Assembly: GCA_964229025.1 (NCBI GenBank)
Contig: CAXRAE010000008.1
Location: forward strand, 146,094 to 178,093
Direction of reading: 5' to 3'
DNA length: 32,000 nt
Source of the DNA: Limnobacter sp.
Lineage (GTDB): Bacteria; Pseudomonadota; Gammaproteobacteria; Burkholderiales; Burkholderiaceae_B
In this document: positions 11,722 to 31,008 of the stretch, piece by piece
Layout of the letters: each line of letters opens with the position of its first letter
How positions within the stretch are numbered: the first letter of the stretch is position 1
Translations under genes and position numbers: made by a program
Notes under the pieces: model-generated
The model's database searches: none
The model's input: the letters and a program-made list of their open reading frames with translations, nothing else
Told to the model about the DNA's origin: nothing

Positions 11722-12570
11722 ATGAATGCTGTTGTATCCAAAGAACCCCGACGAATGCCCAAGGTGGCTTTGTCAGCCTCGATGGGCTTTGCCGCCTACT
11801 GGACTTACCTTTTTTTCAGCCAAACCCGCCACATTTATAGCCCTGCGCTGAAATTGAATGCGGAACATCTCGGTGCAAGCAGCCACGCTCATGAATTCAC
11901 GGCGCTGCGATTGCCAGTGGCTCCCGGGGTTGAACTGGAAGGGTGGGTGCGAATGCCCAGTGGTTTGAACCTTGCGAACGGAAAACTGCCTTGTGCCATT
12001 TATTTTGGTGGTCGCAGTGAAGATGTGCGTTGGTTGTTGAATGAGGCACAGGGTTTCACCAACCTGCCCATGGTGTTTTTCAATTACCGGGGTTATGGCC
12101 GCTCCACGGGCAAGCCCACTGAGAAGAATTTGGTGGCTGATGCGCATGCGATCTACAAGTGGCTGGCTGAACAGCCTTGGTGCGACCAGCATCAAATTTC
12201 AGCCATCGGGCGCAGCCTTGGGACGGGCGTGGCCATGCAGCTGGCCGCCAGCACGCCATTGCACAAACTGGTGTTGTTCACGCCTTACGACAGCTTGATC
12301 AACATCGCGAAAGCCAAAGTGCCTTTGGCCCCGGTGTCGCTGTTGTTGCGTAGCAAATTCAAATCGAACGATTGCGCAGCCCGCGTACACAATCCAACTT
12401 TTGTGGTGTTGGCTGAACACGATGAGGTGGTGCCGCATGCGTCGTCCATCAGTTTGATGAAGCATTTTGCGGTGAAGCCCTTGGTGGCGACTGTGAGAGG
12501 AACCGACCACGTCAGCCTGCCGCACGATTCGGATGCGCAGGCGTTGATTGGGCATTTTCTCACCAGCTGA
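11722..12570 (+). CDS. Alpha/beta-fold hydrolase
   Basis: Nucleophile elbow GRSLGTG, upstream FFNYRGYGRSTG and a late GTDH His block. The N-terminal hydrophobic segment suggests a membrane anchor. I prefer ATG 11722 to the TTG at 11704. Confidence 0.8.
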   Translation: MNAVVSKEPRRMPKVALSASMGFAAYWTYLFFSQTRHIYSPALKLNAEHLGASSHAHEFTALRLPVAPGVELEGWVRMPSGLNLANGKLPCAIYFGGRSEDVRWLLNEAQGFTNLPMVFFNYRGYGRSTGKPTEKNLVADAHAIYKWLAEQPWCDQHQISAIGRSLGTGVAMQLAASTPLHKLVLFTPYDSLINIAKAKVPLAPVSLLLRSKFKSNDCAARVHNPTFVVLAEHDEVVPHASSISLMKHFAVKPLVATVRGTDHVSLPHDSDAQALIGHFLTS

Positions 12571-12648
12571 TTGAGTGACGCAGTGTAGCGTTTGTCACCT
12601 TCCGAGATTCTGTCGTAGTCTTTCACGTTTTAAAAAAAGTGTTTCGTC

Positions 12649-13158
12649 ATGAATCTTGTTTGCGACAGTAAGCTGAAACTGGAATCACTACAAACCTCCG
12701 ATCTGGTTCAATATCAAGGCCTTGATATCAAAGACATTTGCTCCACTGGATTCAATTCATCGGGTCTAAATCATTGCGCTCATTTCGTTTCTCATGCAAT
12801 TGATCTGCAGTTTGGAATGTTGTGCGGAAATATGAGTTGGGCCACTCGGGGTCAAGGCGTCTGCATTCGAGTTGATGAAATTTTTAATCGTTGCGTTCAC
12901 GTGGGGGGTTGGTTCAACAAACCGAAATGTTTAACACCCTGTCTGGCATTTGTAACCCCCAGTTCGAATGTCAGTGGTAAAACCATGGGTAGCAGTCCCA
13001 AAAAGCACATCGGTATCTTTGTCGATGATTTGGTTTGGCATTACTCAAACGGATCTGATCGAGTGATCACAGATTCTCCAGAGCGATTTTTGATCAAATT
13101 CAAAGGTTTGTATGGTGCTAGCACTCAGCTCTATTTTGGCGCGCTTGGCTATGAGTAA
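12649..13158 (+). CDS. Hypothetical 169-aa cytoplasmic Cys/His protein; candidate papain-like (Tae4/NlpC-P60-like) peptidoglycan amidase toxin
   Basis: Visibly AT-richer than the flanks and has no signal peptide. The motif GLNHCAHFVSHAIDL matches the N-x-C-A-x3-S-x-A-(L/I) nucleophile pattern I recall for Tae4. Later elements are IRVDEIFNRC and KKHIGIFVDDLVWHYSNGSDR. This gives C43 ... H120 ... D126/D127/D137 in a protein of about 170 aa. The functional call is inference only. Confidence 0.55.
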   Translation: MNLVCDSKLKLESLQTSDLVQYQGLDIKDICSTGFNSSGLNHCAHFVSHAIDLQFGMLCGNMSWATRGQGVCIRVDEIFNRCVHVGGWFNKPKCLTPCLAFVTPSSNVSGKTMGSSPKKHIGIFVDDLVWHYSNGSDRVITDSPERFLIKFKGLYGASTQLYFGALGYE

Positions 13159-13549
13159 ATTGATTGTTGTTGCAGGTTTGCTCTGTTACACGTCGCTTGC
13201 ATTTTCCGGCTCAAATGGTTCTGCCAATGCGTTACAACTGCTGATCAGCAATGGTGGTGAATTGCTGGCAAGTCATCCAGATTGTTCTCTGTTTACTGGC
13301 AACAAACCAAAAGGCGTCAACAGCGATCAGCCAGGTCATTCCTTACTCGATGACATCGATAATTTTTTTGCAGATACCACCGTAAGGCCAGTCAAAATCA
13401 CTGAGGAGTGTTCCGTCGATCAGAACCAACCTCGTTGGTGTCAGGTTGTTTTTAGCAACGACGACGAAGAGCTTTCTTGGTCAAGGGTTTACCAGTTTGA
13501 AATTCACAACGGTTCGTTGAAAAACTTGCGATGTTTTAACATTCCCTAA
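13112..13549 (+). CDS. Small secreted protein with four Cys in the predicted mature part; candidate periplasmic immunity partner of 12649-13158
   Basis: Signal-peptide-like N-terminus (MSKLIVVAGLLCYTSLAFSG from the alternative ATG at 13151). ATG 13151 overlaps the upstream stop as ATGAGTAA. The track start ATG 13112 has AAAGG 5 nt upstream. The mature part carries four Cys. Composition is AT-rich like its partner. Confidence 0.6.
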   Translation: MVLALSSILARLAMSKLIVVAGLLCYTSLAFSGSNGSANALQLLISNGGELLASHPDCSLFTGNKPKGVNSDQPGHSLLDDIDNFFADTTVRPVKITEECSVDQNQPRWCQVVFSNDDEELSWSRVYQFEIHNGSLKNLRCFNIP

Positions 13550-14607
13550 GGCGATTTTTTCACCCACTCCCGGTGGTCGCTGGGCGTGCGCCCGGTCAGT
13601 TTTTTGAATGCACGGGTGAAGTTGGCTCGGTCCTGGTAGCCCACGCGTTCAGCCACCTCATCGATGTTGAGCTGGGTGGTTTCAAGCAGCAGGCACGCGT
13701 CACGCTCAATCACTTCGCCCAGCAGGTCGGTGAAGTGTCGCCCCTCTTGCTGAAGCTTTCGCTTCAGGGTCCGAACCGACATGTGCAAGGTTTCGGCCAT
13801 GTCTTCAAGTTTTGGGTAGTGGCCGTCGCGGCAAATCAACAGGTTTTTCACTCGCCCGCTCAAATTGTCGCCCAGGCCCAATGCAATCAGTTCCTGCTCG
13901 CATTGTTGAATCACCATTTGGGCGGTGCTGGCGTTGGCGGTGGGCAGGGGCAGGTCCAGCCACTTGGCGGGCATGCGGATCTGGTTGCCGCTGGCATTGA
14001 ATCGGCATTTGGGCAGGCTGCTGGCAAAGCTTGCGTAGTAATCGGGTTCGGGCCAGTCGAACCACAGTTCTGCGCCGGAATTCGTGCGGCTTTGGCCCGT
14101 GGGGTCGAACAGGCTTTCAAAGAGCCGCCACGCCTCAACCATGAAGTTTTCAATGGCAAACTTGCGCACAGGGTAAAGCGGCATCGCCTCGCGAATGTGG
14201 CAAATCACGGTGCGGCCATCCTCGATTGCATCGATGGTGTAAAAAGGCACTTTGGTTGGCAAAAACCGAATGCCCAGCTCAAGGGCTTCGCGAAGGCTGG
14301 CGCAGCTCATCAGGCCAAAGCCAATCATGCCAGCCTTGGTCAGGCTGCTTTGAAGCCCAATGTCGATGGCAATGTGCTCGCTTTGAAACAGTGACAGCAG
14401 GTTCATGACGATGGCGCCGTGCTGGGCCGCGCTGATGCGGCCATTGGGCACTTGCAACTGCGCCAGCTCAAGCCCCGTGCCGTGCAATACCTGGTTCGCT
14501 TTAAACCCGCGCTGCATGGCGTAGTTCACGAAAAACAGCGGGTAGGCCTGCGCCACCGTGGTGGTTTCAAGCCGTTTGAAATGTGCCAGTTCTTTGAGTT
14601 CAGCCAT
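13546..14607 (-). CDS. AraC-family transcriptional regulator (N-terminal AraC-type ligand-binding-like domain)
   Basis: C-terminal double HTH: MAETLHMSVRTLKRKLQQEGRHFTDLLGEVIERDACLLLETTQLNIDEVAERVGYQDRANFTRAFKKLTGRTPSDHR. Confidence 0.9.
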   Translation of the reverse strand: MAELKELAHFKRLETTTVAQAYPLFFVNYAMQRGFKANQVLHGTGLELAQLQVPNGRISAAQHGAIVMNLLSLFQSEHIAIDIGLQSSLTKAGMIGFGLMSCASLREALELGIRFLPTKVPFYTIDAIEDGRTVICHIREAMPLYPVRKFAIENFMVEAWRLFESLFDPTGQSRTNSGAELWFDWPEPDYYASFASSLPKCRFNASGNQIRMPAKWLDLPLPTANASTAQMVIQQCEQELIALGLGDNLSGRVKNLLICRDGHYPKLEDMAETLHMSVRTLKRKLQQEGRHFTDLLGEVIERDACLLLETTQLNIDEVAERVGYQDRANFTRAFKKLTGRTPSDHREWVKKSP

Positions 14608-16835: not shown

Positions 16836-16844
16836 TCAAATCAG

Positions 16845-16865
16845 GGTCTTGAAATTTTCAAGACC
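16845..16865. repeat. Perfect 21-nt palindrome (10-bp arms) 9 nt after the BVMO stop
   Basis: ggtcttgaaa-t-tttcaagacc. No T-run follows, so it may be a weak attenuator/terminator hairpin or a protein-binding site. Confidence 0.5.
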
Positions 16866-16987
16866 AACCCTAGGTCTTCCTGTGCGCCTGAAGCGCTGGC
16901 AAATACACGTGATTGCCGGCCCGTCAGGCGCAGTTATTTCTTCGACTTGAAAAGTTTGCGAGATTTCATAACGGAGGACCCCTGTTT

Positions 16988-17917
16988 ATGCAAGCACAAA
17001 CCATCGCCGACCACTATCCTTCCCGCCTGGGGCAAGCCGAGAAAATCCTGCCCCGTCTTGATCCCGTCGTGTATTACAACCGCGCAACCGGTCTGCCGTG
17101 TGAAGGGCCCTTGAACATGGAGCAAATTGCGCGTTACGAGCGTGACGGCTTTTTGGTGATGAACGATTTGATGCCTGACTGGGTGGAGCCTTTGCGACAG
17201 GAAATTGAACCGCTTTCCCAAAAGCTTCAGGGCAGCGAGAAACTGGTTCTGGAGCCAGACAGCCGCGCCCTGCGAACTGTGTTCGACCCTTTCGGGCACA
17301 GCGAGCTTGTCCAAGGCTTTTTCCAGCATCCGGATATTTTGGGTGTGGCCGAACAGCTTTTGGGCTCAAAAACCCACATGATGCAAAGCCGAATCAATGT
17401 CAAGCCTGCGTTCACGGGCCGATCCTTTGCCTGGCATTCTGATTTTGAAACCTGGCATGTCGAAGATGGAATGCCACGCATGCGCGCACTCACAGCGTGG
17501 ATCATGCTAAGTGATTGCACCGAGCACAATGGGCCGTTGTATGTAATCCCCGGGTCTCACAAAGAGTTCATTTCCTGTTCGGGTATTACGGGGCAAGACA
17601 ACTTCAAAACCTCACTTCGCAAACAAACGCTTGGCGTGCCCTCTGCCCAGACGATGCGCAAAGTGCTCGGCAAGCGCCGAATTGAAAGCATCACGGGCTC
17701 TGCGGGCACCGTGGTTTTTCATGAATGCAATTTGTTGCACGGGTCGCCCGACAATATTTCCGCTGATCCCCGTACCGTGCTGATGGGTGTGTTCAACAGC
17801 CTTGATAATCAGGTTGTGAAACCCTTTGGTGCCAGGGAACCCAGGCCCGATTATCTGTGTCAACGGGAAGCCCAAGCGCTGCACAGAATGGACATGGGGC
17901 TTGAAATCATGGCCTAA
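16988..17917 (+). CDS. ectD: Ectoine hydroxylase (non-heme Fe(II)/2-oxoglutarate dioxygenase, PhyH superfamily)
   Basis: It contains FAWHSDFETWHVEDGMP, a complete match to the EctD signature F-x-WHSDFETWH-x-EDG-(M/L)-P as I remember it. Also EctD-like are the N-terminal HYPSR, QSRINVKPAF, NGPLYVIPGSH and LLHGSPDN. GGAGG lies 10 nt upstream of ATG 16988. Confidence 0.8.
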   Translation: MQAQTIADHYPSRLGQAEKILPRLDPVVYYNRATGLPCEGPLNMEQIARYERDGFLVMNDLMPDWVEPLRQEIEPLSQKLQGSEKLVLEPDSRALRTVFDPFGHSELVQGFFQHPDILGVAEQLLGSKTHMMQSRINVKPAFTGRSFAWHSDFETWHVEDGMPRMRALTAWIMLSDCTEHNGPLYVIPGSHKEFISCSGITGQDNFKTSLRKQTLGVPSAQTMRKVLGKRRIESITGSAGTVVFHECNLLHGSPDNISADPRTVLMGVFNSLDNQVVKPFGAREPRPDYLCQREAQALHRMDMGLEIMA

Positions 17918-21030: not shown

Positions 21031-21297
21031 GTGGGTTTAAATGATGTCACCTCCCTGATTCGCTCCCGTCGGCGCGAAATGGGGTTGACCCAAAAGCAAT
21101 TGGGCGATTTGTTGGGCATTGACCAACGCACGGTGTCTTCCCTGGAGAAAAACCCGGGTTCCATCAGCGTGCATCGCCTGTTCGCCGTGCTGGGTGCTTT
21201 GCAGGTGGGTTTGTACGCCTCAAACGACCCGCGCGACGAAAGCAATTTGTCCCGGGTCACGGTAGACCAGTTGTTTAGAAATGCGAAAATTGTTTAA
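21031..21297 (+). CDS. XRE-family HTH protein, HipB-like, with no adjacent kinase
   Basis: LIRSRRREMGLTQKQLGDLLGIDQRTVSSLEKNPGSISVHRLFAVLGALQVGL runs parallel to E. coli HipB (LVRQQNGWTQSELAKKIGIKQATISNFENNPDNTTLTTFFKILQSLELSMTL, recalled from memory). GTG start. Confidence 0.75.
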   Translation: MGLNDVTSLIRSRRREMGLTQKQLGDLLGIDQRTVSSLEKNPGSISVHRLFAVLGALQVGLYASNDPRDESNLSRVTVDQLFRNAKIV

Positions 21298-21311
21298 GGT
21301 TTAAGCCCTTC

Positions 21312-21339
21312 GGCGGCTTCACGGCTGCCGCCTCTTTTC
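21312..21339 (+). terminator. Weak terminator-like hairpin after the HTH gene
   Basis: ggcggc-ttcacggct-gccgcc followed by tcttttc. The stem is only 6 bp. Confidence 0.35.
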
Positions 21340-21435
21340 ACCCCTTCACCCGGGGTGCATCACCCTTTTTGATTCGATTTTTATAAACGTCGCGCGCCGA
21401 GTAACTTTTGCCGGTTATCGGCTTGTCGTGCGTTC

Positions 21436-24400
21436 ATGGATTTCGTTCAAATTCCCGTTTTTGGTCAGTCGGTCAGGCCTGGTCTCGGTTTTCGCTTTCG
21501 TGGCAATTACTGGGCATTTTTCGAACGGCGCACGAAATTGTCGCCCTGGCTGGCCTTGCACCGCGAATCCATCAACGACACCCTGTTGGACGAGTTGCTG
21601 TTCCACGGTTTCCCAAAAAGCAGAACGGGCCAAACTGTGGATTGCAAGGTGCTCACGCATTTTGGTTTGATCTACGGCCCTTTGTACCGCGATGGTTGGC
21701 TGGTTGACCGCACCGAGCGCCAACGCACAGCGGTGTTCACTGGCGACTTGCAAGTGGTCAAGTTGCCGATATCCGACAGGCCTGAAACCAACCTGCTCGA
21801 CCCCAACAGCATTTACTGGGTTAGCGAAGAAAAACTGTTGAACCATCCCGCAGGCAGTGCGGAGCACGAGCGCGGCCAGGCGCTGGTGGAAATGGCCAGC
21901 ATCTTGCTGGCGCGCTGGCGCGAGCATGATCGCTTGAACCTGGAATTCAAGGCGCAAAGCCGTGTGCGTGAACTGCTTGAAGAGGGCAAGGCGATTGGCC
22001 ATGGCGTGGGCTCTGCAGCCGTGGATTTTGTGCAGGGGCTTTGGGATTTGATCAAGGTCACTGTGGAGTTCACCGCCACCGCAGTGAAAGCAAGCTGCCG
22101 TGGTTTGAAAAAAATCGTGCAGTCCAACTTTGCAGAAATTCGGCAAATGTTGTTGGCCGCGGGCATGCAAGCCTATCAAAGCGCCCAGGAAATGATCGCC
22201 GCCGTGCAAGAAGGGTTGCGCCTGTTCAATCTGGTTTGCCAGGATCGCTTGTTGCGAGCCGGTATTTTCGAATTTCTTGACGGGTATTCGGAAAGCGTTC
22301 CCCACCTTCGCCGCCTTCACAACATGGCCGGTGCGGTGTTTGTCATCGGTATTGAGGTGCTGCTGGCGCTGGCCACCATGGGCGGCAGTGTGGTGGCTGC
22401 GGCTGGGCGCATGGGTGTGAGGGTAGGGCCGTTCACCATGAAATCCATTCGACACCTGGCCCAGTTTGCCAAAGCCAAAGGCAGCGAATTGGCTCAGAAA
22501 ATGCGAGCCGACACCGGTGGCGCGCCCGCTGCCCCGCCTAAAAAAGCAGCAAACACAGCAGCCAACCCAACAGCCAACTCAACAGCCAACAACTCAACCA
22601 ACCCCTCATCCAAAACCGAGGCAGATTCATCCACCAAGCCAGCCGGGCCGCTTGAATCAACAGGCGCAAGTGGCCCGCGTGCGGAGAAAACACCCACGCA
22701 GGGCGAACCCATCAGCATGATCAATGGCGAAGAGCTGTTGCAACTGGTGGATTGCAGTTTGCCCGGTTTGGTGGGCATGAACTGGCAGCGTACCTATCGC
22801 AGCAGCATCGCCGAGCAGGGCTTTAATGCAGGGCTGGGTGCCGGTTGGGCGCACCCATTGGCGCAACACATTGAACTGAATTCGAACGGTTGCAATTACA
22901 TCGACGATGAAGGCCGCACGGTTTACTTCAAACCCTTGAACGTGGGGCAGCAGTGCACCAACACCAGTGAATTTCTAACGCTACGGCGCACCGGGCAGCA
23001 CACCTATCGCCTTCAAGCCAGCCATGGCTTGGGCTGGGCCTGGTATTTCGAGGCATTTGACCAAGGGCACGCCTCGCTTGCGCGAATTGAAGATGCCTTT
23101 GGCAACACCCTGCGCATTGAATACAACGGCGATGGTCGGCCCGCCTGGGTGCACAGCAGCCAAGCCAGCTGGGCGCTGCATTACAACGCACAAGGCTTGT
23201 TGGCCCATATCGCACAAGTGGCACAACCCCTTGATGTGGCTGGCTTGAATCAATGGGTTCTGGTTCAGTACCAGTACAACGAACTGGGGCAGCTGGTGGC
23301 CGCCACCGACGCTGCCGGGCACACCGAACGGTACGCTTACAATGCCAAGCACGTGCTGGTGCAACGCACCCTGAAAAGTGGCTACAACATTCACTTCGAG
23401 TGGGAAAGCTACCGCGCCGACGGCACGCCACTGCCCAATTCACGCTGCGCGCGCCAATGGGGCGACCCGGTGCAGGGCCAGCCCACCTACCACTACCGCT
23501 TTGAGTGGGATTTGACAGGCACAGGAATAGGCACTCGTGGCGCCGACGGCATGGTGAATGCAGCCATTGATAGCCGTGGCGCGCGCACCGAATACGAATT
23601 CAATCACCAAGGCTTGTGCACCCGGCAACGCAGCCCCGAAGGCGGCAGCACCCGCACCCGCTACAACGATCAAGGCCAGGCCATTGAGCAGGTGGATGAA
23701 CTGGGCCACGCCCAGCGCTGGGTGTACAACAGGCAGGGTTATTTGGTCGCGTATGTGGACAAACTGGGCCACACGCACCAACTGGAATTAAATGCGCAGG
23801 GCCAGGTGCTGCGCCACACCGACCCGGCAGGCCAAAGCCGCAGCTACACCTACACCCCAGAAGGCCTGTTGGCCAGCCAAACCGATGCCACCGAAGCCAC
23901 CACCCGCTACCGATACAACGAGCTTGGCTTGCCGTGCGAAATCATCAACCCATTGGGCCAAAGCACACGCCTGTTGTACAGCGCACAGGGGCAAATACAG
24001 GCCCAAACCAATGCGCTGGGGCACAGCACCACCTATCAATTTGATACGTGGGGCCGCTTGGTTGGTGTCAGCAACCCCATGGGGCGCACCGCCTCGTATG
24101 CCTACGATTTAATGGGCCGGTGCACCCGCGCCAGCAATCATGAAGGCTTGTCCACACAATACAGTTACACCGAACTGGGGCAGATCGCGAAAATCGTCGA
24201 CCCCACCGGGCGTAGCACCATTTACGAATACGCAGACCGTTTAAGCCAGCCCACCGCGCGTATTGATTCGCAAGGCTTCAGGCTGCATTACCGCTACGAC
24301 AGCGAACGCAACCTCGTCGAGCTCCACAATGAAAACGGCCAAAGCTGCCATTTTGAGTACGATTTGGCCGAGCGCCTGGTTAAAGAACGCGGATTCGACG

Positions 24401-26406
24401 GCCGCGTGCAAACCTATCAATACAACGCAGCAGGCCACCTGCAGGAAAAGCAGGATTGGGGCGTGTTGGGTGGCAGCGCCCCGGGCGAAACCGTCTTTCT
24501 GAACGACATTCCAGCCCAGCCCGTGGCCTTCACACGGTATGAACGCAATGCCCACGGCCTGCTGCTTAAAGCCATTCACAGCGACGGCGAAGAATCCACG
24601 TTCACATACAACGCCTTGGGCCAACTGGTGCAAGCCAACAACGCCCACCGTCCACTGGCTTGGGAAGTGGATCCAGAAGGCCGGGTGCTGGCTGAAATTC
24701 AAGACCAACACCGCATCGAACACAGCTACAACCCAGCGGGTTGGCTCAAACAAACCCAATGGCAAGGCATGGGCGGTGAAGCAAAAGGGGCGCTACCCTC
24801 GAGTGCCTTGGGTTTGAATTACAACGCGCTGGGGCAGCTCAGTGAAATCAATCTGAATGGCGAGCTACTCGCCCAGTTTGAACGCGACACCTTGGGCCGC
24901 GAAGTGAAGCGCAAACTGGCCAACCAGGTGCAAAGCCAAAGCCTGTACGACCCCCAAGGCCGCCTGGTGGGGCAGATCAACCGAAGGGGCCGCAACACTG
25001 GGCAAGTGGATGGCAGCGGGCCGACTTTGTCTCGCAGGCGCTATGTGTACAACCAGCGCAACCAGTTGGTTCGCATCGATGATCAAAACCACGGCAGCCA
25101 CTTCTACCAATACGACCCGCTCGACAGGTTGCGCACCGTTGAAGGCCCCAATCCAGAAGCCTTCCTGTTCGACCCCGCCAGCAACCTGTTAGAAGCGCTG
25201 GATGGGCAAGACGCCACCGATGCGATGGCAGCGAAATCGCTGCCTGAACCCGACAGCCCCAATGCCCGCAGGCCGCAACAAGCCCCGGGCAACCGGCTGA
25301 AACGCCAAGGCAACCGCCGCTTTACATACGACGAGCGCGGCAACCGCATTGAAGAAATCATCGAGCGCGGCCCAAGGCAAGGGCAGGTAACCCGCTACCG
25401 CTACAACGCTCAAAACCAGTTGATCGAAGTGAATGTGGGAGGTGTGGCCACCCGCTACGCTTACGACGCACTGGGCAGGCGAATTTCCAAAAGCAGTGAA
25501 CACAGCACCACCACCTTTTACTGGAATGGCGATGTGTTGCTGGGTGAAGTCAATGAACAGGTGATTGGCAACGCCGACCACAAATCGCCACGGCCCAGCC
25601 GCACCTATTTATTCGAACCCTTCAGCTTCACGCCACTGGCGCTGATTCAAAACGGTGAGGTGTTTCACTACCACACCGACCACATTGGCACACCGCGAGA
25701 AATCAGCAACGCCAATGCTGAAATAGTGTGGTCAAGCACCTTCAAAACCTACGGCGCACTGGCCGTGGCCCACGTGAACGAAGTAGCCAACCCGCTGCGC
25801 TTCCAAGGCCAATATTTCGACGAAGAAACAGGACTACACTACAACCGGCACCGTTACTACGACCCCAGCTGCGGCCAGTTCACCACCCAAGACCCGATCG
25901 GGTTGTTGGGTGGAATGAACGCCTACCAGTACGCACCGAACCCGCTGACATGGGTGGATCCGTGGGGGTTGAGTTGTAAGGAGTACGTCCACAGAAAAAC
26001 TAGAATTGATAGCAAAGTTACAGAAATAGAACAACAGCCACTACCGCAGAGCGTAAAAGATAGCTTTGAGGATGGCGAATATCGCACTGTAGTCGCAAAC
26101 GAGGATATTATTTTGTATCGCGCATATGGCGGTAATGCAAAAGCCTCTGGCGGTTTTGCTACTACGCTTCCAGTACAAAATAGAATTCAAGCGAAGCAGG
26201 ATTTAGCGCTGCTACCTGAGTGGAAAAACTCTCGGACCAATGAAGCAGTAATTCGTATTCCAAAGGAAACAGTCCTGAATGTCGGTAAAGTTGCACCCCA
26301 GCGCACCGCTTCGGGCACCGTTCTTCAGGGGGGTGCAGATCAGGTTCTTTTGCCGCAAAATTGGCCCTCGGAGTGGATTATTGATTATTATCCAATAAGA
26401 CCATAA
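21436..26406 (+). CDS. Rhs/YD-repeat polymorphic toxin (1656 aa): unknown N-terminal domain, low-complexity linker, Rhs shell, C-terminal toxin tip
   Basis: One continuous frame. A plug-like segment GEPISMINGEELLQLVDCSLPGLVGMNWQRTYRSS is followed by many YD repeats (YxYDxxGxL type: RYAYNAKH, RTRYNDQGQAIE, YTYTPEGLL, RYRYNELGL, YAYDLMGR, YAYDALGRRI). The conserved core end is LRFQGQYFDEETGLHYNRHRYYDPSCGQFTTQDPIGLLGGMNAYQYAPNPLTWVDPWGL (DPWGL at 25957-25971). The start codon is uncertain because there is no clear SD before 21436. Confidence 0.95.
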   Translation: MDFVQIPVFGQSVRPGLGFRFRGNYWAFFERRTKLSPWLALHRESINDTLLDELLFHGFPKSRTGQTVDCKVLTHFGLIYGPLYRDGWLVDRTERQRTAVFTGDLQVVKLPISDRPETNLLDPNSIYWVSEEKLLNHPAGSAEHERGQALVEMASILLARWREHDRLNLEFKAQSRVRELLEEGKAIGHGVGSAAVDFVQGLWDLIKVTVEFTATAVKASCRGLKKIVQSNFAEIRQMLLAAGMQAYQSAQEMIAAVQEGLRLFNLVCQDRLLRAGIFEFLDGYSESVPHLRRLHNMAGAVFVIGIEVLLALATMGGSVVAAAGRMGVRVGPFTMKSIRHLAQFAKAKGSELAQKMRADTGGAPAAPPKKAANTAANPTANSTANNSTNPSSKTEADSSTKPAGPLESTGASGPRAEKTPTQGEPISMINGEELLQLVDCSLPGLVGMNWQRTYRSSIAEQGFNAGLGAGWAHPLAQHIELNSNGCNYIDDEGRTVYFKPLNVGQQCTNTSEFLTLRRTGQHTYRLQASHGLGWAWYFEAFDQGHASLARIEDAFGNTLRIEYNGDGRPAWVHSSQASWALHYNAQGLLAHIAQVAQPLDVAGLNQWVLVQYQYNELGQLVAATDAAGHTERYAYNAKHVLVQRTLKSGYNIHFEWESYRADGTPLPNSRCARQWGDPVQGQPTYHYRFEWDLTGTGIGTRGADGMVNAAIDSRGARTEYEFNHQGLCTRQRSPEGGSTRTRYNDQGQAIEQVDELGHAQRWVYNRQGYLVAYVDKLGHTHQLELNAQGQVLRHTDPAGQSRSYTYTPEGLLASQTDATEATTRYRYNELGLPCEIINPLGQSTRLLYSAQGQIQAQTNALGHSTTYQFDTWGRLVGVSNPMGRTASYAYDLMGRCTRASNHEGLSTQYSYTELGQIAKIVDPTGRSTIYEYADRLSQPTARIDSQGFRLHYRYDSERNLVELHNENGQSCHFEYDLAERLVKERGFDGRVQTYQYNAAGHLQEKQDWGVLGGSAPGETVFLNDIPAQPVAFTRYERNAHGLLLKAIHSDGEESTFTYNALGQLVQANNAHRPLAWEVDPEGRVLAEIQDQHRIEHSYNPAGWLKQTQWQGMGGEAKGALPSSALGLNYNALGQLSEINLNGELLAQFERDTLGREVKRKLANQVQSQSLYDPQGRLVGQINRRGRNTGQVDGSGPTLSRRRYVYNQRNQLVRIDDQNHGSHFYQYDPLDRLRTVEGPNPEAFLFDPASNLLEALDGQDATDAMAAKSLPEPDSPNARRPQQAPGNRLKRQGNRRFTYDERGNRIEEIIERGPRQGQVTRYRYNAQNQLIEVNVGGVATRYAYDALGRRISKSSEHSTTTFYWNGDVLLGEVNEQVIGNADHKSPRPSRTYLFEPFSFTPLALIQNGEVFHYHTDHIGTPREISNANAEIVWSSTFKTYGALAVAHVNEVANPLRFQGQYFDEETGLHYNRHRYYDPSCGQFTTQDPIGLLGGMNAYQYAPNPLTWVDPWGLSCKEYVHRKTRIDSKVTEIEQQPLPQSVKDSFEDGEYRTVVANEDIILYRAYGGNAKASGGFATTLPVQNRIQAKQDLALLPEWKNSRTNEAVIRIPKETVLNVGKVAPQRTASGTVLQGGADQVLLPQNWPSEWIIDYYPIRP
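22507..22710 (+). repeat. Low-complexity Ala/Pro/Asn/Thr/Ser linker inside the Rhs ORF with imperfect short tandem DNA repeats
   Basis: The protein reads ADTGGAPAAPPKKAANTAANPTANSTANNSTNPSSKTEADSSTKPAGPLESTGASGPRAEKTPTQGEP. DNA at 22546-22606 reiterates cagccaac-type units. Confidence 0.8.
25972..26403 (+). other. Rhs C-terminal toxin domain (residues 1513-1656), family unassigned
   Basis: It begins immediately after DPWGL. Composition switches to visibly AT-rich from about 25980. The sequence is SCKEYVHRKTRIDSKVTEIEQQPLPQSVKDSFEDGEYRTVVANEDIILYRAYGGNAKASGGFATTLPVQNRIQAKQDLALLPEWKNSRTNEAVIRIPKETVLNVGKVAPQRTASGTVLQGGADQVLLPQNWPSEWIIDYYPIRP. Confidence 0.85.
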
Positions 26407-26411
26407 ATGTC

Positions 26412-26672
26412 ATGAATATTTCAATTGTCATAAATCAAATTGAGCAAGCCTTAGTTTTACTAAGGAAGCATCATGAATCATCTAGTTCATGGTTTGCTAA
26501 AACGATTGCCTTGTATGAAAAGGCTTTGCAAAGTCCGACAGATAAAAACTTTAAAGAATTACTAGGTTTGTCAAGGGCTTATTTAGAAACAGCAAGTGAT
26601 TGGAGTCAAGATTTCTTTATTGAAACCGATAGAACAGAGCAATTGGTGAAAACTTACCTAAACGCTCGATGA
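26412..26672 (+). CDS. Putative cognate Rhs immunity protein (86 aa)
   Basis: It starts 5 nt after the rhs stop on the same strand. It is AT-rich like the toxin tip and small. The call rests on the canonical rhs-CT/rhsI arrangement. No family recognised. Confidence 0.7.
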   Translation: MNISIVINQIEQALVLLRKHHESSSSWFAKTIALYEKALQSPTDKNFKELLGLSRAYLETASDWSQDFFIETDRTEQLVKTYLNAR

Positions 26673-26689
26673 AACCATAAACCCTAGCG

Positions 26690-27761
26690 CCTTCAGGCCA
26701 CAGCCGGACCCGGGTAACAGGCTGTAGCGGCAAGGAAGACCGCGCTTTACATGCGACGCACTTGGCGGGCAGGTATGCAAGGAAAGTGAAAGCGCCGATG
26801 GCACCAAAGCCACCACCACCTTTTACTGGAATGGCGATGTGCTGTTGGGTGAATTCAATGAACAGGTGATTGGCAACGCCGACCACAAACCGCCACGGCC
26901 CAGTCGCACTTACTTGTTTGAGCCATTCAGCTTCACGCCACTGGCGCTGATTCAAAACGGTGAGGTGATTCACTACCACACCGACCACATTGGCACACCG
27001 CGAGAAATCAGCAACGCCAATGCTGAAATAGTGTGGTCAAGCACCTTCAAAACCTATGGCGCACTGGCGCTGGCCCACGTGAACGAAGTGGATAATCCAC
27101 TGCGCTTTCAAGGGCAATATTTCGACGAAGAAACAGGGCTACACTACAACCGGCACCGGTATTACGACCCCAACTGCGGCCAGTTCACCACGCAAGACCC
27201 GATTGGGCTGTTGGGTGGAATGAATGCCTACCAGTACGCACCGAACCCGGTGACGTGGGTGGATCCGTGGGGGTTGAGTTGTAAAGAGTGGAAAGATCTC
27301 AACCCGGGGCTATCCACTTCGAGGCTTAATGAAATACTGGCTACCCCAAAAGGACAAAGGCCAGATCCTTCTACGTACCTATCAAAAACTATACTCGACG
27401 TCACAAGGCGTTTTTTGATTCGGGCGCGGCAAGGATTCAACCTTCTGCGCCAACTGGCACAATTGGCCGGACTGAGACATGGGTTTTTCCGAAATCTGTA
27501 GTGTCCGATGCAGTTTCGTCTGCTAATGGAGACCCAAGAAAACTTGAGTCTTTATTTGGGCTTGATGCAAGCTATTTAGGTACAGCGCCAGTATTGGTTG
27601 ATATCCCAAATCCACAGAATGTGCGCATCCCGTCGGGCAATGAGTTTGGGGCGAACGGTTTCTGGCGACCTGGCGGTCTCACTTATCCAGGACGAATTCC
27701 AGAAGCCGTTATTGACCCAGTGCTGGAAGGCGAATATCTGGTATCTCCTGTATTCAAATAA
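26690..27761 (+). pseudogene. Orphan Rhs C-terminal cassette (core 3' end plus an alternative toxin tip), promoterless, with an internal YD-repeat deletion and a frameshift
   Basis: Positions 26811-27285 align without indels to the main gene at 25506-25980 (offset 1305). By hand I count roughly 30 mismatches, with an identical 88-nt run at 25664-25751 versus 26969-27056. Weaker homology starts at about 26690, and an in-frame TAG lies at about 26724. DPWGL lies at 27262-27276. The new tip is split between the 26839 frame (stop 27499-27501) and the 27501 frame (open from 27333 to 27761). Confidence 0.85.
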
Positions 27762-27772
27762 ATGGTGAAAGT

Positions 27773-28024
27773 ATGACAGTGGTTTTTGAAGGTAATGGGG
27801 TGAAGTTGATAGAAAAGTCCGGAGGTTTTTACCTCAGGTATGATGCAGGCTCTCATCAGGTTGAAATTCGAGAGGATATGGTATCCAGGGATGAGGCTGA
27901 AAAAATAAAGTCTGGAGAAACGAAGTTAATCACTCAGGTTTTGATGAGAATTCAGACAGAGCTAATTAATTCAAGGATCGATCCGCATAAAAGTAATCTG
28001 AGTTCGGGAAGGCACCAGCTTTAA
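27773..28024 (+). CDS. Putative immunity protein for the orphan toxin tip (83 aa)
   Basis: It starts 11 nt after the orphan tip stop, on the same strand, and is AT-rich. The call is positional. No family recognised. Confidence 0.65.
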   Translation: MTVVFEGNGVKLIEKSGGFYLRYDAGSHQVEIREDMVSRDEAEKIKSGETKLITQVLMRIQTELINSRIDPHKSNLSSGRHQL

Positions 28025-28025
28025 A

Positions 28026-28295
28026 TTGTCAACAAATGGGCTGAATGATCAAGTTAGGATATTTCAGCAACTCAGGGCGGCTGATTTCGTATTTTCCGCT
28101 GACTACGAATGGTCGCCATCAGAATTATTTGAATTGTTTCGTGACCAAGGTTCGCTTTAGGGCAACTATATAAGGATTGTATGGATTGATAGCTCACGTA
28201 ATACCTTGGGTATGCGCCCGCAATTGATGGGCGGGGGAAATCAAATTTATGTTCCAAAAGTTGACGCGGGGTTAATTAAGCCAAGTGTTCCATAA
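28026..28295 (+). pseudogene. Decayed small ORF interrupted by an in-frame TAG
   Basis: The frame from TTG 28026 reads STNGLNDQVRIFQQLRAADFVFSADYEWSPSELFELFRDQGSL, then TAG (28158-28160), then GNYIRIVWIDSSRNTLGMRPQLMGGGNQIYVPKVDAGLIKPSVP and TAA (28293-28295). Both halves look protein-like. Confidence 0.4.
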
Positions 28296-28590
28296 AGATT
28301 TTTTACTGTTGAAGCAGTGGTTGGCAGATGTTGGGTGCGTGGTTTTTTATTTGGAGAATCCGGTGCTTGGGCGGCCCGGCGATAATCAATATGAGTATTT
28401 GAATGCCGCATTGAAAGATGGTATCGGAATATTTGAATTCTCCGATGATTTAAGAATTGAAATATCTGGGCCGATCAAGCTTGATATTTCAGGGTCTTAC
28501 ATTGAGCTTCATTCAATTGAAATTCTTGGACTAAGTTGGCGTGGAAGCTTCGTTGAGTTGCGTCACACATCACTTCGCATAGATAAATAA
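28285..28590 (+). CDS. Hypothetical 101-aa protein (possible orphan immunity gene or the 3' part of the decayed upstream ORF)
   Basis: GTG-initiated ORF overlapping the end of the previous frame. It is AT-rich and carries no recognisable motif. Confidence 0.4.
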   Translation: MFHKDFLLLKQWLADVGCVVFYLENPVLGRPGDNQYEYLNAALKDGIGIFEFSDDLRIEISGPIKLDISGSYIELHSIEILGLSWRGSFVELRHTSLRIDK

Positions 28591-28666
28591 CCACGTGTAC
28601 CGTCATAGTGTTTGTTACAGTTGCGAGTATTAAAGCGAACGCCGTAAGGAAAAGGTTTCCTCGCCG

Positions 28667-28775
28667 AAGCAGTTATCGAGCGTGGCCCACGCCAAGGGCA
28701 GGTAACCCGCTACCGCTACAACGCTCAAAACCAGTTGATCGAAGTGAATGTGGGAGGTGTGGCCATCCGCTACGC
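28667..28775 (+). repeat. Relic fragment of an Rhs core (third copy)
   Basis: Positions 28675-28775 align to the main gene at 25360-25460 (101 nt, 4 mismatches by hand count). This region encodes IERGPRQGQVTRYRYNAQNQLIEVNVGGVA(T/I)RYA. Homology fades on both sides. Confidence 0.85.
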
Positions 28776-28917: not shown

Positions 28918-29154
28918 GTGGAAAGTGTCGAACTCCTAACAGAATTGATTGCCGAGGGCAAAAAACAAGGGCTGACACAGTCCAAGTTGGCCACGGCCGC
29001 TGGTATTCACCCGGTCACCTTGTCCAAAGCGCTTAGCACCGGTCGCTACGAAATAGCCACGCTTCAGAGTTTATGCCGCGTTCTGAACATGAAAGTGATT
29101 CTTACTCGGAATAATGATATTTCAGAGGGATTGCGCAAGGGGGATCTGTTTTGA
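28918..29154 (+). CDS. XRE-family HTH antitoxin-like protein (HipB position)
   Basis: KKQGLTQSKLATAAGIHPVTLSKALSTGRYEIATLQSLCRVLNMKVIL is an HTH_3-type motif. Its TGA (29152-29154) overlaps the TTG start (29151) of the kinase gene. Confidence 0.8.
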   Translation: MESVELLTELIAEGKKQGLTQSKLATAAGIHPVTLSKALSTGRYEIATLQSLCRVLNMKVILTRNNDISEGLRKGDLF

Positions 29155-30620
29155 GCTGGAAAGATCGCTTTGCCGTCGTATGGACTCGCGCCTCGGGTGC
29201 GCCCGAAAAACTCGCAGACATGGTTCTCACAGAGACTGAACTGCGAGTGACCTTTAGCGACTCCGCAAGAAAAAACGGGACTCCAGGATTGAGCATGCTT
29301 CACGATATGGGCGGGGACTCCATTCTGGTCTACTCTAGAAATGGTTCGCGCGTATTGCCACCACAACTGCGAGCACTGTTGCCTCCAGATGTAGCCCTGA
29401 ACCCCCAGCGCAGGATCCTGTTGGATCTCATGTTGACCAGCGGCCGATCAATCACCGGATTGCCAACAGAGCTGCAGCAGTGGGAGATGCTCGTATTTGC
29501 CGGCCGAAACGCAGTTGGTCACATCGATGTGTTTGAAAGCGACCGCGATGCCCAGCACTACTACGCGCAGAATGATGGATCCGTGCAACCAGCAGGTCGC
29601 TCGGCGCTCAGGGATCTTAAGCTGTGGGGCGCGTTTAGAAAGTATGTCGCCCAGAGCCTACCCAGCGTCGAGGAAGACCAACTCAAAGCGACCTTGGGAC
29701 CCACGCCCGGTGTCGCAGGCTTCGTCCCCAAGATGTTGTGTACCATTGAGCTGGAATCGGACGGATCATGGGCAGGTAAAACCATCGGCAAGCCGGGGAC
29801 CGGGGAGGGCGGTCGAGCTTCCGTTAGCGCCTTGGTCAAAATTGAGCAGAACAGTTACCCCGGGCTGCTACAGCTAGAGTCGCTGGCTTACGAGTACCAT
29901 AGGAAAGCCGAGTTATTTGATGTCCCACGCACCTGGTTGCTGGAAACGACCGTCAATGAAGAGCCTCTGATTGCCTTGGCGTCCGAGCGCTTTGATCGGG
30001 ATCACGATGTACCGCTTCCGCTGGAGAGTATGTACAGCATTTTGCACACCGGTAGCCCTACGAAGTACCTGTGCAACACAGACGGTTCAATCGAAAAAAT
30101 CGGAGAAGTGCTCAACAAGCTGAGGTTCCCCTATGCTGAGGTAGAAAGGTTTTATGCCCAATTTGTGATGTCGCTTCTGACCGGCAACGGGGACCTGCAT
30201 ACCGACAACCTTGCAATTCTCACAGCTCCGGGCAAAAACGCAATGAAGCGTTATCGCCTCTCCCCCCTGTTTGACCCTGCACCTATGCGCGCATACCGAG
30301 GCCGTCACAGCCACAACGTGTTAAGTGCTTTGCCTTTTGGCGGTGGAGACCCCTCTGAAACGACCGGGTCAGCGACTCCTGTAGATCTGTTTGACAGGAT
30401 TATGTCTGTAGCCAAGGCCATGGGTATCAAACACACCAAAGCGAAGTCATTGGTGATGCACCTTTACCAGGTAACCGAACCTTACCTTAACGACGCCATC
30501 AAGCTGCTTCGATCAATCCCGGCAGACAGAAGACCCAACAGCCTGGCACCCGATATCCAGGGGTTCGAGACCACGGTACAAGAGGTGCGCAGCGCCATTG
30601 CAAAAGGCTGGGCTGGGTGA
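29151..30620 (+). CDS. HipA-family Ser/Thr kinase toxin-like protein (489 aa)
   Basis: It has a HipA N-terminal coupling-like start, a P-loop-like PGVAGFVPKM (compare the AGxQxK motif), catalytic GNGDLHTDNLAIL (compare GNxDxHxxN) and LSPLFDPAP (Mg-binding Asp region). Confidence 0.8.
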   Translation: MSWKDRFAVVWTRASGAPEKLADMVLTETELRVTFSDSARKNGTPGLSMLHDMGGDSILVYSRNGSRVLPPQLRALLPPDVALNPQRRILLDLMLTSGRSITGLPTELQQWEMLVFAGRNAVGHIDVFESDRDAQHYYAQNDGSVQPAGRSALRDLKLWGAFRKYVAQSLPSVEEDQLKATLGPTPGVAGFVPKMLCTIELESDGSWAGKTIGKPGTGEGGRASVSALVKIEQNSYPGLLQLESLAYEYHRKAELFDVPRTWLLETTVNEEPLIALASERFDRDHDVPLPLESMYSILHTGSPTKYLCNTDGSIEKIGEVLNKLRFPYAEVERFYAQFVMSLLTGNGDLHTDNLAILTAPGKNAMKRYRLSPLFDPAPMRAYRGRHSHNVLSALPFGGGDPSETTGSATPVDLFDRIMSVAKAMGIKHTKAKSLVMHLYQVTEPYLNDAIKLLRSIPADRRPNSLAPDIQGFETTVQEVRSAIAKGWAG

Positions 30621-31008
30621 ATATCCCTTTTTTGAGCCTGATCAAAGTGGAATCGAAACCGTTTGAATACAGAAGGAAGTGAAGTGCGAAGATGGATTTT
30701 CGCCAGTGGCTGATGCGCCCTGGAAAGAGGAATATCGAGATGGTCCCTGCAAGGTGAAGCGAGAGGCCAAGTACGATGAGTTCAAGGAAGAAATCAAGTG
30801 CAAGTAGCCTGTGGTGCGACAGTGCGTTGTTGAAATACCAGGCTCTGCTGGAACTTTGATTCGAATTTCACCACCCACAAGAATCTTCGCTTGGTAAAGT
30901 TGCCCCCCGAATTTAGGGGCCTTCCGGCCTTCTGCAGAAAGCATTAACTTTAAAACCAACCATAAAAACTATTTCAAGCAATAAACTCGACACATAACAA
31001 TAAAAACA

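Follow-up and report, generated by a model that had tools for sequence, protein, structure and literature searches.

We describe here an Rhs polymorphic-toxin locus in a stretch of 32,000 nucleotides (nt) from the Limnobacter sp. contig CAXRAE010000008.1 (hereafter, the window; L numbers denote the loci and contigs compared with it). The most prominent feature of the locus is an intact rhs gene, followed by an array of orphan toxin and immunity genes in various states of repair (Table 1). A first-pass annotation, made from the DNA sequence alone, had called a single intact gene for a 1656-amino-acid (aa) Rhs protein, and the open reading frame (ORF) is indeed uninterrupted, with a start codon and an MDF... 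N terminus that are kept among its homologs. Pfam places DUF6531 at residues 423–498, 11 RHS repeats and RHS at residues 1409–1443 of this protein, and NCBIfam places Rhs_assc_core (TIGR03696) at residues 1437–1512; the YD/RHS-repeat shell is matched by PF05593 (E 1e-70, 11 stretches) and by TIGR01643 (E 4e-65). The core closes with PLTWVDPWGL at residues 1503–1512 (last nucleotide 25971), which has the form PxxxxDPxGL and is followed by a variable tip. Repeats, core plus tip and a downstream ORF predicted to encode the cognate immunity protein, the features that define an Rhs polymorphic toxin, are thus all present.

The rhs array and its downstream cassettes

Table 1. Features of the Rhs locus, followed by neighboring genes (window coordinates)
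Feature	Position	Strand	Size and remarks
rhs gene, intact	21436..26406	+	1656-aa ORF (4971 nt); Pfam and NCBIfam domains
N-terminal domain, unnamed family	21436..22530	+	aa 1–365; candidate type VI secretion loading and membrane-translocation module
Linker, low-complexity, Ala/Pro/Asn/Thr-rich	22531..22701	+	aa 366–422; pLDDT <50
DUF6531 plug, YD-repeat shell and Rhs core	22702..25971	+	ends in the PLTWVDPWGL autoproteolysis motif
Toxin tip 1	25972..26406	+	144 aa; predicted NAD(P)+ glycohydrolase, Tne2/Rhs1-CT/Tse6 fold class
Immunity gene 1	26412..26672	+	86 aa; 5 nt after the rhs stop; GC 0.341; predicted
Orphan cassette 2, Rhs core 3'-end fragment	26694..27276	+	DPWGL ends at 27276; in-frame TAG at 26725–26727
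Toxin tip 2, pseudogene	27277..27761	+	1-nt deletion in the A-run 27384–27388
Immunity gene 2	27773..28024	+	83 aa, intact; predicted cognate to the tip-2 family
Decayed small ORF	28026–28200	+	TAG at 28158–28160; probable remnant of a further immunity-type gene
Third toxin tip stump, L. olei type	28202..28290	+	final ~30 codons; same superfamily as tip 1
Immunity gene 3, orphan, intact	28285..28590	+	101 aa
Rhs core relic	28666..28775	+	110 nt, 93.6% identical to 25351–25460
HipB/Y4mF-like helix-turn-helix (HTH) gene	21031..21297	+	88 aa; Pfam HTH_3
HTH and HipA_C kinase pair	28918..30620	+	78 aa and 489 aa; Pfam; stop and start overlap

The ratio of nonsynonymous to synonymous substitution rates (dN/dS) against five orthologs is 0.13–0.17 in the N-terminal domain and 0.14–0.20 in the core, figures that are rough because dS is saturated. 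On these values, the rhs gene is under purifying selection, which maintains it. The linker between the two parts is 18–25% identical to its counterparts in orthologs, with a dN/dS of 0.3–0.85. GC content falls from 0.585 in the core to 0.451 in tip 1 and lower again in immunity gene 1, and in the second cassette from 0.547 in the orphan core to 0.480 in tip 2 and 0.409 in immunity gene 2, so that the AT-rich switch noted earlier at both DPWGL boundaries (25971 and 27276) is borne out by measurement.

Tip 1 has 34 homologs, typically 51–65% identical, in Proteobacteria and Firmicutes, and these have no Pfam family; the proteobacterial ones lie behind Rhs cores, and one from Firmicutes lies behind a PT-TG domain. 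Its AlphaFold (AF2) model has a predicted local distance difference test (pLDDT) score of 91.5. When this model is compared with the PDB by Foldseek, the best match is Tne2 (6b12; E 3.7e-4, TM 0.73), followed by the Serratia Rhs1-CT (6xtd; E 2.7e-3). Further matches are 4zv4, 4zv0, 8r15 and 8pmr, among them Tse6 and fungal TNT-like NAD-degrading enzymes (NADases), and no other PDB structure scores under E 0.5. The matched toxins (Tne2, Rhs1-CT, Tse6 and the fungal enzymes) function as NADases (Hagan 2023, PMC10539506; PMC13285283). On the strength of this model, tip 1 can be assigned confidently to the fold of the Tne-type NAD(P)+ glycohydrolase toxins (Tne1/Tse6, Tne2 and Tne3/Rhs1-CT, in the TNT superfamily), and we infer that it probably degrades NAD(P)+. 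Both tips had at first been described as belonging to families that could not be named; for tip 1, structure prediction overturns that description by placing it in a fold of type VI secretion system (T6SS) NADases. Sequence-level searches give no such placement: the profile of tip 1 finds no match in the PDB, and neither the two tips, the immunity candidates nor the N-terminal domain match any Pfam or NCBIfam family down to E 5, Pfam TNT (PF14021) included in the case of tip 1. Within the tip-1 family, R50, E91, D123 and Q124 are invariant or nearly so.

The immunity-sized ORF that had been reported 5 nt beyond the rhs stop is found there, starting at 26412. Its product is 27–37% identical to the products of ORFs lying directly 3' of tip-1 homologs in three unrelated contigs (L034, L035 and L037), with which it has the motif SRxYLExxSDW in common, and this makes it the predicted cognate immunity protein of tip 1. 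Two of these homologs (L034:810-1064 and L037:2883-3164) are annotated as PF27174 (YeeD) in a newer Pfam release; that no family was found for immunity 1 reflects the library version, since the Pfam copy scanned does not hold PF27174.

Behind immunity gene 1 lies a second core 3' end. Positions 26811–27289 repeat 25506–25984 at 93.1% identity over 479 nt without a gap, and a weaker repeat links 26694–26758 to 25269–25333 (79%); the block equivalent to 25334–25505 is absent. The tip that follows is a frameshifted pseudogene, because its homologs carry as one continuous domain what is here split between the end of ORF 26839–27501 and ORF 27501–27761. Putting one A back into the run at 27384–27388 yields a domain of 161 aa, 93% of which is spanned by the homologs with both halves fused (n = 11, up to 85% identical). 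Two tip-2 homologs annotated as filamentous hemagglutinin are CdiA tips. The tip-2 profile has as its weak best match (E 0.17–0.2) the Streptococcus pyogenes NADase SPN, which serves as a lead only. The first-pass annotation had recognized this cassette and its different tip, and both stand, but its own immunity gene is 27773–28024; ORF 27501–27761 was considered for that role and rejected, as it encodes the second half of the tip-2 domain, up to its C terminus. Immunity 2 is 37–43% identical to the products of ORFs directly 3' of tip-2 homologs in three unrelated metagenome contigs (L038, L039 and L040), with the shared motif RYDAGxHQ...RED.

The remainder of the array had been read as decayed small ORFs and a core relic of 101 nt. 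Of these ORFs, a decayed one lies at 28026–28200 and is 47% identical to L021:16791-16985, part of an orphan array in another Limnobacter genome; 27773–28024 and 28285–28590 are intact immunity genes, and 28202–28290 is a toxin stump. Over the segment 28202–28688, identity is 86.5% to L018:14806-15294, which immediately follows the Rhs ortholog in Limnobacter olei P1, and immunity 3 is 85% identical to the product of the ORF directly after that Rhs (L018:14889-15194). The L. olei tip shares 34% identity with tip 1 (E 9e-18), to which both tip 3 and the tips of the MED105 type are remotely homologous. The relic is present but is 110 nt long. The array therefore reads, in order, live toxin and immunity; frameshifted toxin and intact immunity; decayed ORF; toxin stump and intact immunity; core relic. 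As judged by alignment, repeats of such length and identity are far beyond chance.

Two observations bear on the origin of the core fragments. The source of the relic, 25351–25460, falls exactly within the block 25334–25505 absent from cassette 2 (gap at 26759–26810), and the relic and cassette 2 are both 93–94% identical to the main gene. A single rearrangement that split one older core fragment may have given rise to both.

An N-terminal domain family found beside T6SS genes

No Pfam or NCBIfam model matches residues 1–422 of the Rhs protein, and a word-based search with the N-terminal domain recovers four Limnobacter relatives only. An exhaustive profile search of 1.84 billion representative proteins, by comparison, collects 58 members, all of which match from about residue 1. 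Rhs cages follow the domain in 12 of the 47 members scanned; others are proteins of ~550–680 aa that end in Endonuclea_NS_2, Ntox15/17/46/50, YwqJ-deaminase, Colicin-DNase, WHH, EndoU, TNT or RES. Being always N-terminal and fused to many different toxins, the domain bears the signature of a trafficking domain of polymorphic toxins. One member (P0085) joins it to a tip-2-family toxin without an Rhs cage, the same domain and toxin family here occurring in two architectures.

The AlphaFold (AF2) model of the domain has a mean pLDDT of 72 and comprises an α/β part at residues 1–170 (pLDDT ~90) followed by a helical part. A hydrophobic stretch at residues 294–326 is conserved, and many members have a second such stretch. 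Neither fold nor sequence-profile comparison finds anything like the domain in the PDB. Known delivery features are also missing: Pfam and NCBIfam detect no PAAR, DUF4150 or VgrG in the Rhs protein, a regular-expression search of the protein finds no prePAAR motif (AARxxDxxxH), Pfam finds no PAAR or DUF1795 gene in the window, and the protein shows no signal peptide, no two-partner secretion (TPS) domain and no export domain of another known kind. No DUF1795 gene lies beside the family's members in the neighborhoods examined. We accordingly rejected a prePAAR/Eag effector, there being no motif, PAAR domain or DUF1795 gene, and a MIX effector, as a regular-expression search, which tests the motif only, found no hRxGhhYhh in residues 1–430.

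The genomic setting of the family in other genera points to the T6SS. In L010, a gammaproteobacterial metagenome-assembled genome (MAG), tssJ-K-L-M, tagF and vgrG are followed 46 nt on by an Rhs gene with the N-terminal domain. The effector comes after tssM-tagF-pppA in Aurantivibrio and three Cellvibrionaceae genomes (L005/L022, L027 and L031), and is divergent from vgrG-PAAR in L008/L032, L023, L024 and L029. The VgrG proteins of L008 and L010 are ~575–590 aa long. Outside Limnobacter, 8 of 12 distinct informative gammaproteobacterial loci place the family beside T6SS core genes or vgrG; the remaining four are stand-alone, as are all the Limnobacter loci. In the window itself, a Pfam scan of all large ORFs shows no T6SS or Tc gene, and tblastn with ten kinds of T6SS protein (TssJ/K/L/M, TagF, Fha, PppA, VgrG and PAAR among the queries) has no match, in agreement with the earlier statement that no T6SS or Tc partner gene lies within the 32 kb. 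Limnobacter sp. MED105, which carries an orthologous Rhs locus (L019), was credited with one T6SS in a 2009 survey (Persson 2009, PMC2702493 Table 1).

The first-pass annotation had regarded the lack of a nearby secretion partner as unusual. T6SS effectors encoded far from the T6SS cluster are common, however, and with the N-terminal domain linked to the T6SS in relatives, the absence of vgrG and PAAR becomes less strange. The "stand-alone" puzzle would thus be largely resolved by a rare N-terminal domain whose sequence relatives are T6SS-linked.

Tip exchange at a conserved chromosomal site

The metabolic genes on one side of the locus and the HipA module on the other are as first stated: aldehyde dehydrogenase, thiamine pyrophosphate (TPP) enzyme, PhyH and FMO genes form the left flank, and HTH and HipA_C genes the right. 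The flanks are 76–80% identical at the nucleotide level to Limnobacter genomes (MED105, L. alexandrii, L. olei, sp. 130 and several MAGs), and the Limnobacter loci have in common the gene order AraC, DUF4149, FMO, TPP enzyme, aldehyde dehydrogenase, HTH and Rhs. In eight related genomes, an rhs gene is present at this chromosomal site, with a different tip in each. Its ORF is intact in all eight, a point that the first-pass annotation had singled out for checking. Nucleotide homology of these orthologous loci to the rhs gene of the window ends at 25972–25987; the tips beyond this point are TNT (PF14021) in two lineages, tip-1-like in three and unplaced in the others, and the closest relative found (81% identical) bears yet another tip. 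Since homology is lost at one place in all eight same-site orthologs and the tips differ, the aligned sequences show directly that tips are exchanged at a fixed site. The displacement by homologous recombination proposed at the outset, here within the conserved 3' end of the core, is in this way corroborated by tip swapping among related strains.

The tips of L001/L013, L016, L018, L019, L021 and P0121 are mostly NAD-degrading in appearance, belonging to the TNT family or to the tip-1 superfamily, which has the motif G-V-A-P-Q...G-G-x-x-Q. This suggests, at the level of sequence families, a repeated choice of NADase cargo in the Rhs lineage. Limnobacter genomes also hold a second, paralogous Rhs locus (L009, 10001-16989; L021, 9941-17000) with the same N-terminal domain (43–45% identical) and orphan cassettes of its own; the L009 paralog again adjoins an FMO-like gene, away from any T6SS gene.

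The right end of the variable island is a conserved anchor at 30639–30801 in the Limnobacter loci. Positions 30639–30807 are the apparently truncated 3' remnant of a gene for a small Cys-rich protein, intact (144 aa) in L. olei at L018:15303-15737. The HTH/HipA_C pair lies inside the island and outside the Rhs system; other Limnobacter have PIN or AbiEii modules there. The other HTH gene, at 21031–21297, has no adjoining kinase gene and stands directly upstream of Rhs in 12 of 12 Limnobacter-type loci (81–83% aa identity), with terminator-like hairpins between it and rhs at 21311–21366. Its conservation exceeds that of rhs; it may be a dedicated Rhs regulator, or possibly a mere core-genome neighbor. 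Scans for tRNA genes and Rfam families gave no integration site. Two segments further to the left are without counterpart in the syntenic Limnobacter loci: ~1 kb at 12560–13560, with ORFs 12649–13158 and 13112–13549 that have no Pfam match, and 16837–17888, which holds the PhyH dioxygenase gene (16913–17917).

Proposed delivery mechanism and comparison with known systems

Considered together, these data make it probable that the locus encodes an Rhs-class T6SS cargo effector of a Limnobacter-like betaproteobacterium, located away from its T6SS cluster. In the mechanism we propose, the N-terminal domain would take the place of PAAR and load the Rhs protein onto a VgrG spike encoded elsewhere, and the hydrophobic hairpin at residues 294–326 would probably aid passage of the toxin through the inner membrane of the target cell. 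The DUF6531 plug and the YD shell would enclose the 144-aa tip, which self-cleavage after PLTWVDPWGL would release. The tip, as a predicted NAD(P)+ glycohydrolase, would then drain the NAD of the recipient, and the 86-aa protein would block the toxin within the producer. The downstream remnants would be earlier tips, pushed out when the conserved 3' end of the core recombined. Both older toxins are dead, tip 2 through its frameshift and tip 3 through truncation, whereas their immunity genes are intact; the products of 27773–28024 and 28285–28590, if expressed, would probably guard against relatives that still deliver these toxins.

We further propose, tentatively and with slightly less than even confidence, that the N-terminal domain is a PAAR-free, chaperone-free T6SS delivery ("marker") domain not described before. 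Such a domain may consist of a globular VgrG-docking part (residues 1–170) and its own membrane-insertion hairpin, and may be joined to its toxin directly or by way of an Rhs cage.

Several observations weigh against an effector of this kind. T6SS genes are absent from the 10 kb around each of the ~11 Limnobacter-type loci, and from the window; the T6SS-linked relatives are 20–30% identical and mostly from Cellvibrionaceae, and the eight loci are not fully independent. The evidence for a T6SS in Limnobacter is the 2009 survey of one other strain. The model of the N-terminal domain is of medium confidence and matches nothing solved, and the NADase assignment is a likeness of fold, with modest E-values, 15–24% identity and no match to Pfam TNT. 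The isolation of the Limnobacter loci and their low identity to the T6SS-linked clade would also suit a domain that works without a T6SS in the Limnobacter lineage, the toxin being exported or displayed at the membrane through the hairpin or by another machine and the rhs gene being truly stand-alone; MED105 also has a type III and three type V secretion systems (Persson 2009, PMC2702493). We consider this unlikely, as both BLAST and profile searches unite the two clades in one domain family, whose position and types of cargo do not differ between them, the protein has none of the export domains sought, and unlinked T6SS effectors are common.

Less likely again is that the locus no longer attacks and is kept mainly as an immunity island, with rhs heading for decay. 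In favor of this, two of the three tips are dead and all three immunity genes are intact, and no promoter-like site was seen on the + strand between 20900 and 31000, in what was a crude scan for a sigma-70 consensus. The uninterrupted 4971-nt ORF, its dN/dS of ~0.15 in the N-terminal domain and core, and the intact rhs genes of the eight related genomes all weigh against it. A BC component of a Tc-type (insecticidal ABC) toxin, or another anti-eukaryotic Rhs, is very improbable and was rejected: there is a weak TEN_YD-shell match, YD shells are common to TcB/TcC and TNT-class NADases can act on eukaryotic cells too, but Pfam finds no TcA, TcB, SpvB or β-propeller in the protein or the window, the relatives are embedded in T6SS clusters, and the cognate immunity genes directly downstream argue for a toxin active in bacteria.

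For a T6SS effector of the proposed kind, the nearest precedents are two PAAR-less Rhs T6SS effectors, RhsF of Chromobacterium violaceum (FIX-Rhs-ART; PMC13324451) and TseI of Aeromonas dhakensis (VIRN-Rhs-VIRC; PMC7170923). As in these cases, the Limnobacter locus has no Eag chaperone gene and has an immunity gene directly downstream. In RhsF and TseI, another N-terminal domain provides the link to VgrG, a role that for the Limnobacter domain is proposed only, and both are encoded beside their own vgrG, whereas the Limnobacter rhs is not. The toxins differ as well, being a predicted NADase here, an ART in RhsF and a nuclease in TseI. The Limnobacter domain is ~365 aa long, has a hydrophobic hairpin and counts 58 representatives, compared with ~80 aa (reference motif, V12_14465 aa 43-121) and 2881 proteins for the widespread FIX in the FIX study, a difference that would set the two apart, if indirectly.

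Serratia marcescens Rhs1 (Hagan 2023, PMC10539506; PDB 6XTD) is similar in having a tip of the Tne fold, tips exchangeable between strains at one locus, and intact orphan immunity genes downstream that match the toxins of relatives. In contrast to the Limnobacter protein, it has a PAAR domain, uses EagR and sits at the end of a T6SS cluster. Tip 1 and Serratia Rhs1-CT are 24% identical over the structural alignment, and their immunity families are unrelated. A hydrophobic N-terminal segment ahead of a toxin acting in the cytoplasm is also found in the prePAAR/transmembrane-domain effectors (Tse6 and P. protegens RhsA), an analogy that suggests a similar membrane-crossing role; unlike them, the Limnobacter Rhs is without a prePAAR motif, a PAAR domain or a nearby DUF1795 gene.

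In E. coli, Salmonella and Dickeya, the classical rhs loci consist of a full-length gene followed by promoterless fragments (rhs-CT/rhsI arrays). Each orphan fragment retains part of the core 3' end together with an alternative tip and its immunity gene; the tip and the immunity gene are both rich in AT, and tips can be swapped when the core recombines. The Limnobacter locus differs in that its N terminus is not linked to PAAR or vgrG and in that its orphan toxins are already inactivated, so that any remaining use would fall to their immunity genes. The combination of an Rhs gene with orphan cassettes is otherwise textbook architecture, and real novelty is confined to the N-terminal domain.

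If confirmed, the N-terminal family, whose members carry at least 11 different kinds of known toxin domain, would be a new handle for the discovery of T6SS effectors and would represent a new mounting mode for PAAR-less Rhs proteins. Were its reading as a marker true, the domain could be used like MIX, FIX, RIX and PIX to find effectors in marine and freshwater Proteobacteria. In addition, toxins can now be paired with immunity proteins for two toxin and three immunity families that the searched copies of Pfam and NCBIfam do not contain. Finally, the array is a clean natural example in which the orphan toxins are dead but the orphan immunity genes remain intact and match a toxin that is still live in the sister species L. 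olei, and this combination supports the view that arrays of this kind serve defense and not toxin switching.

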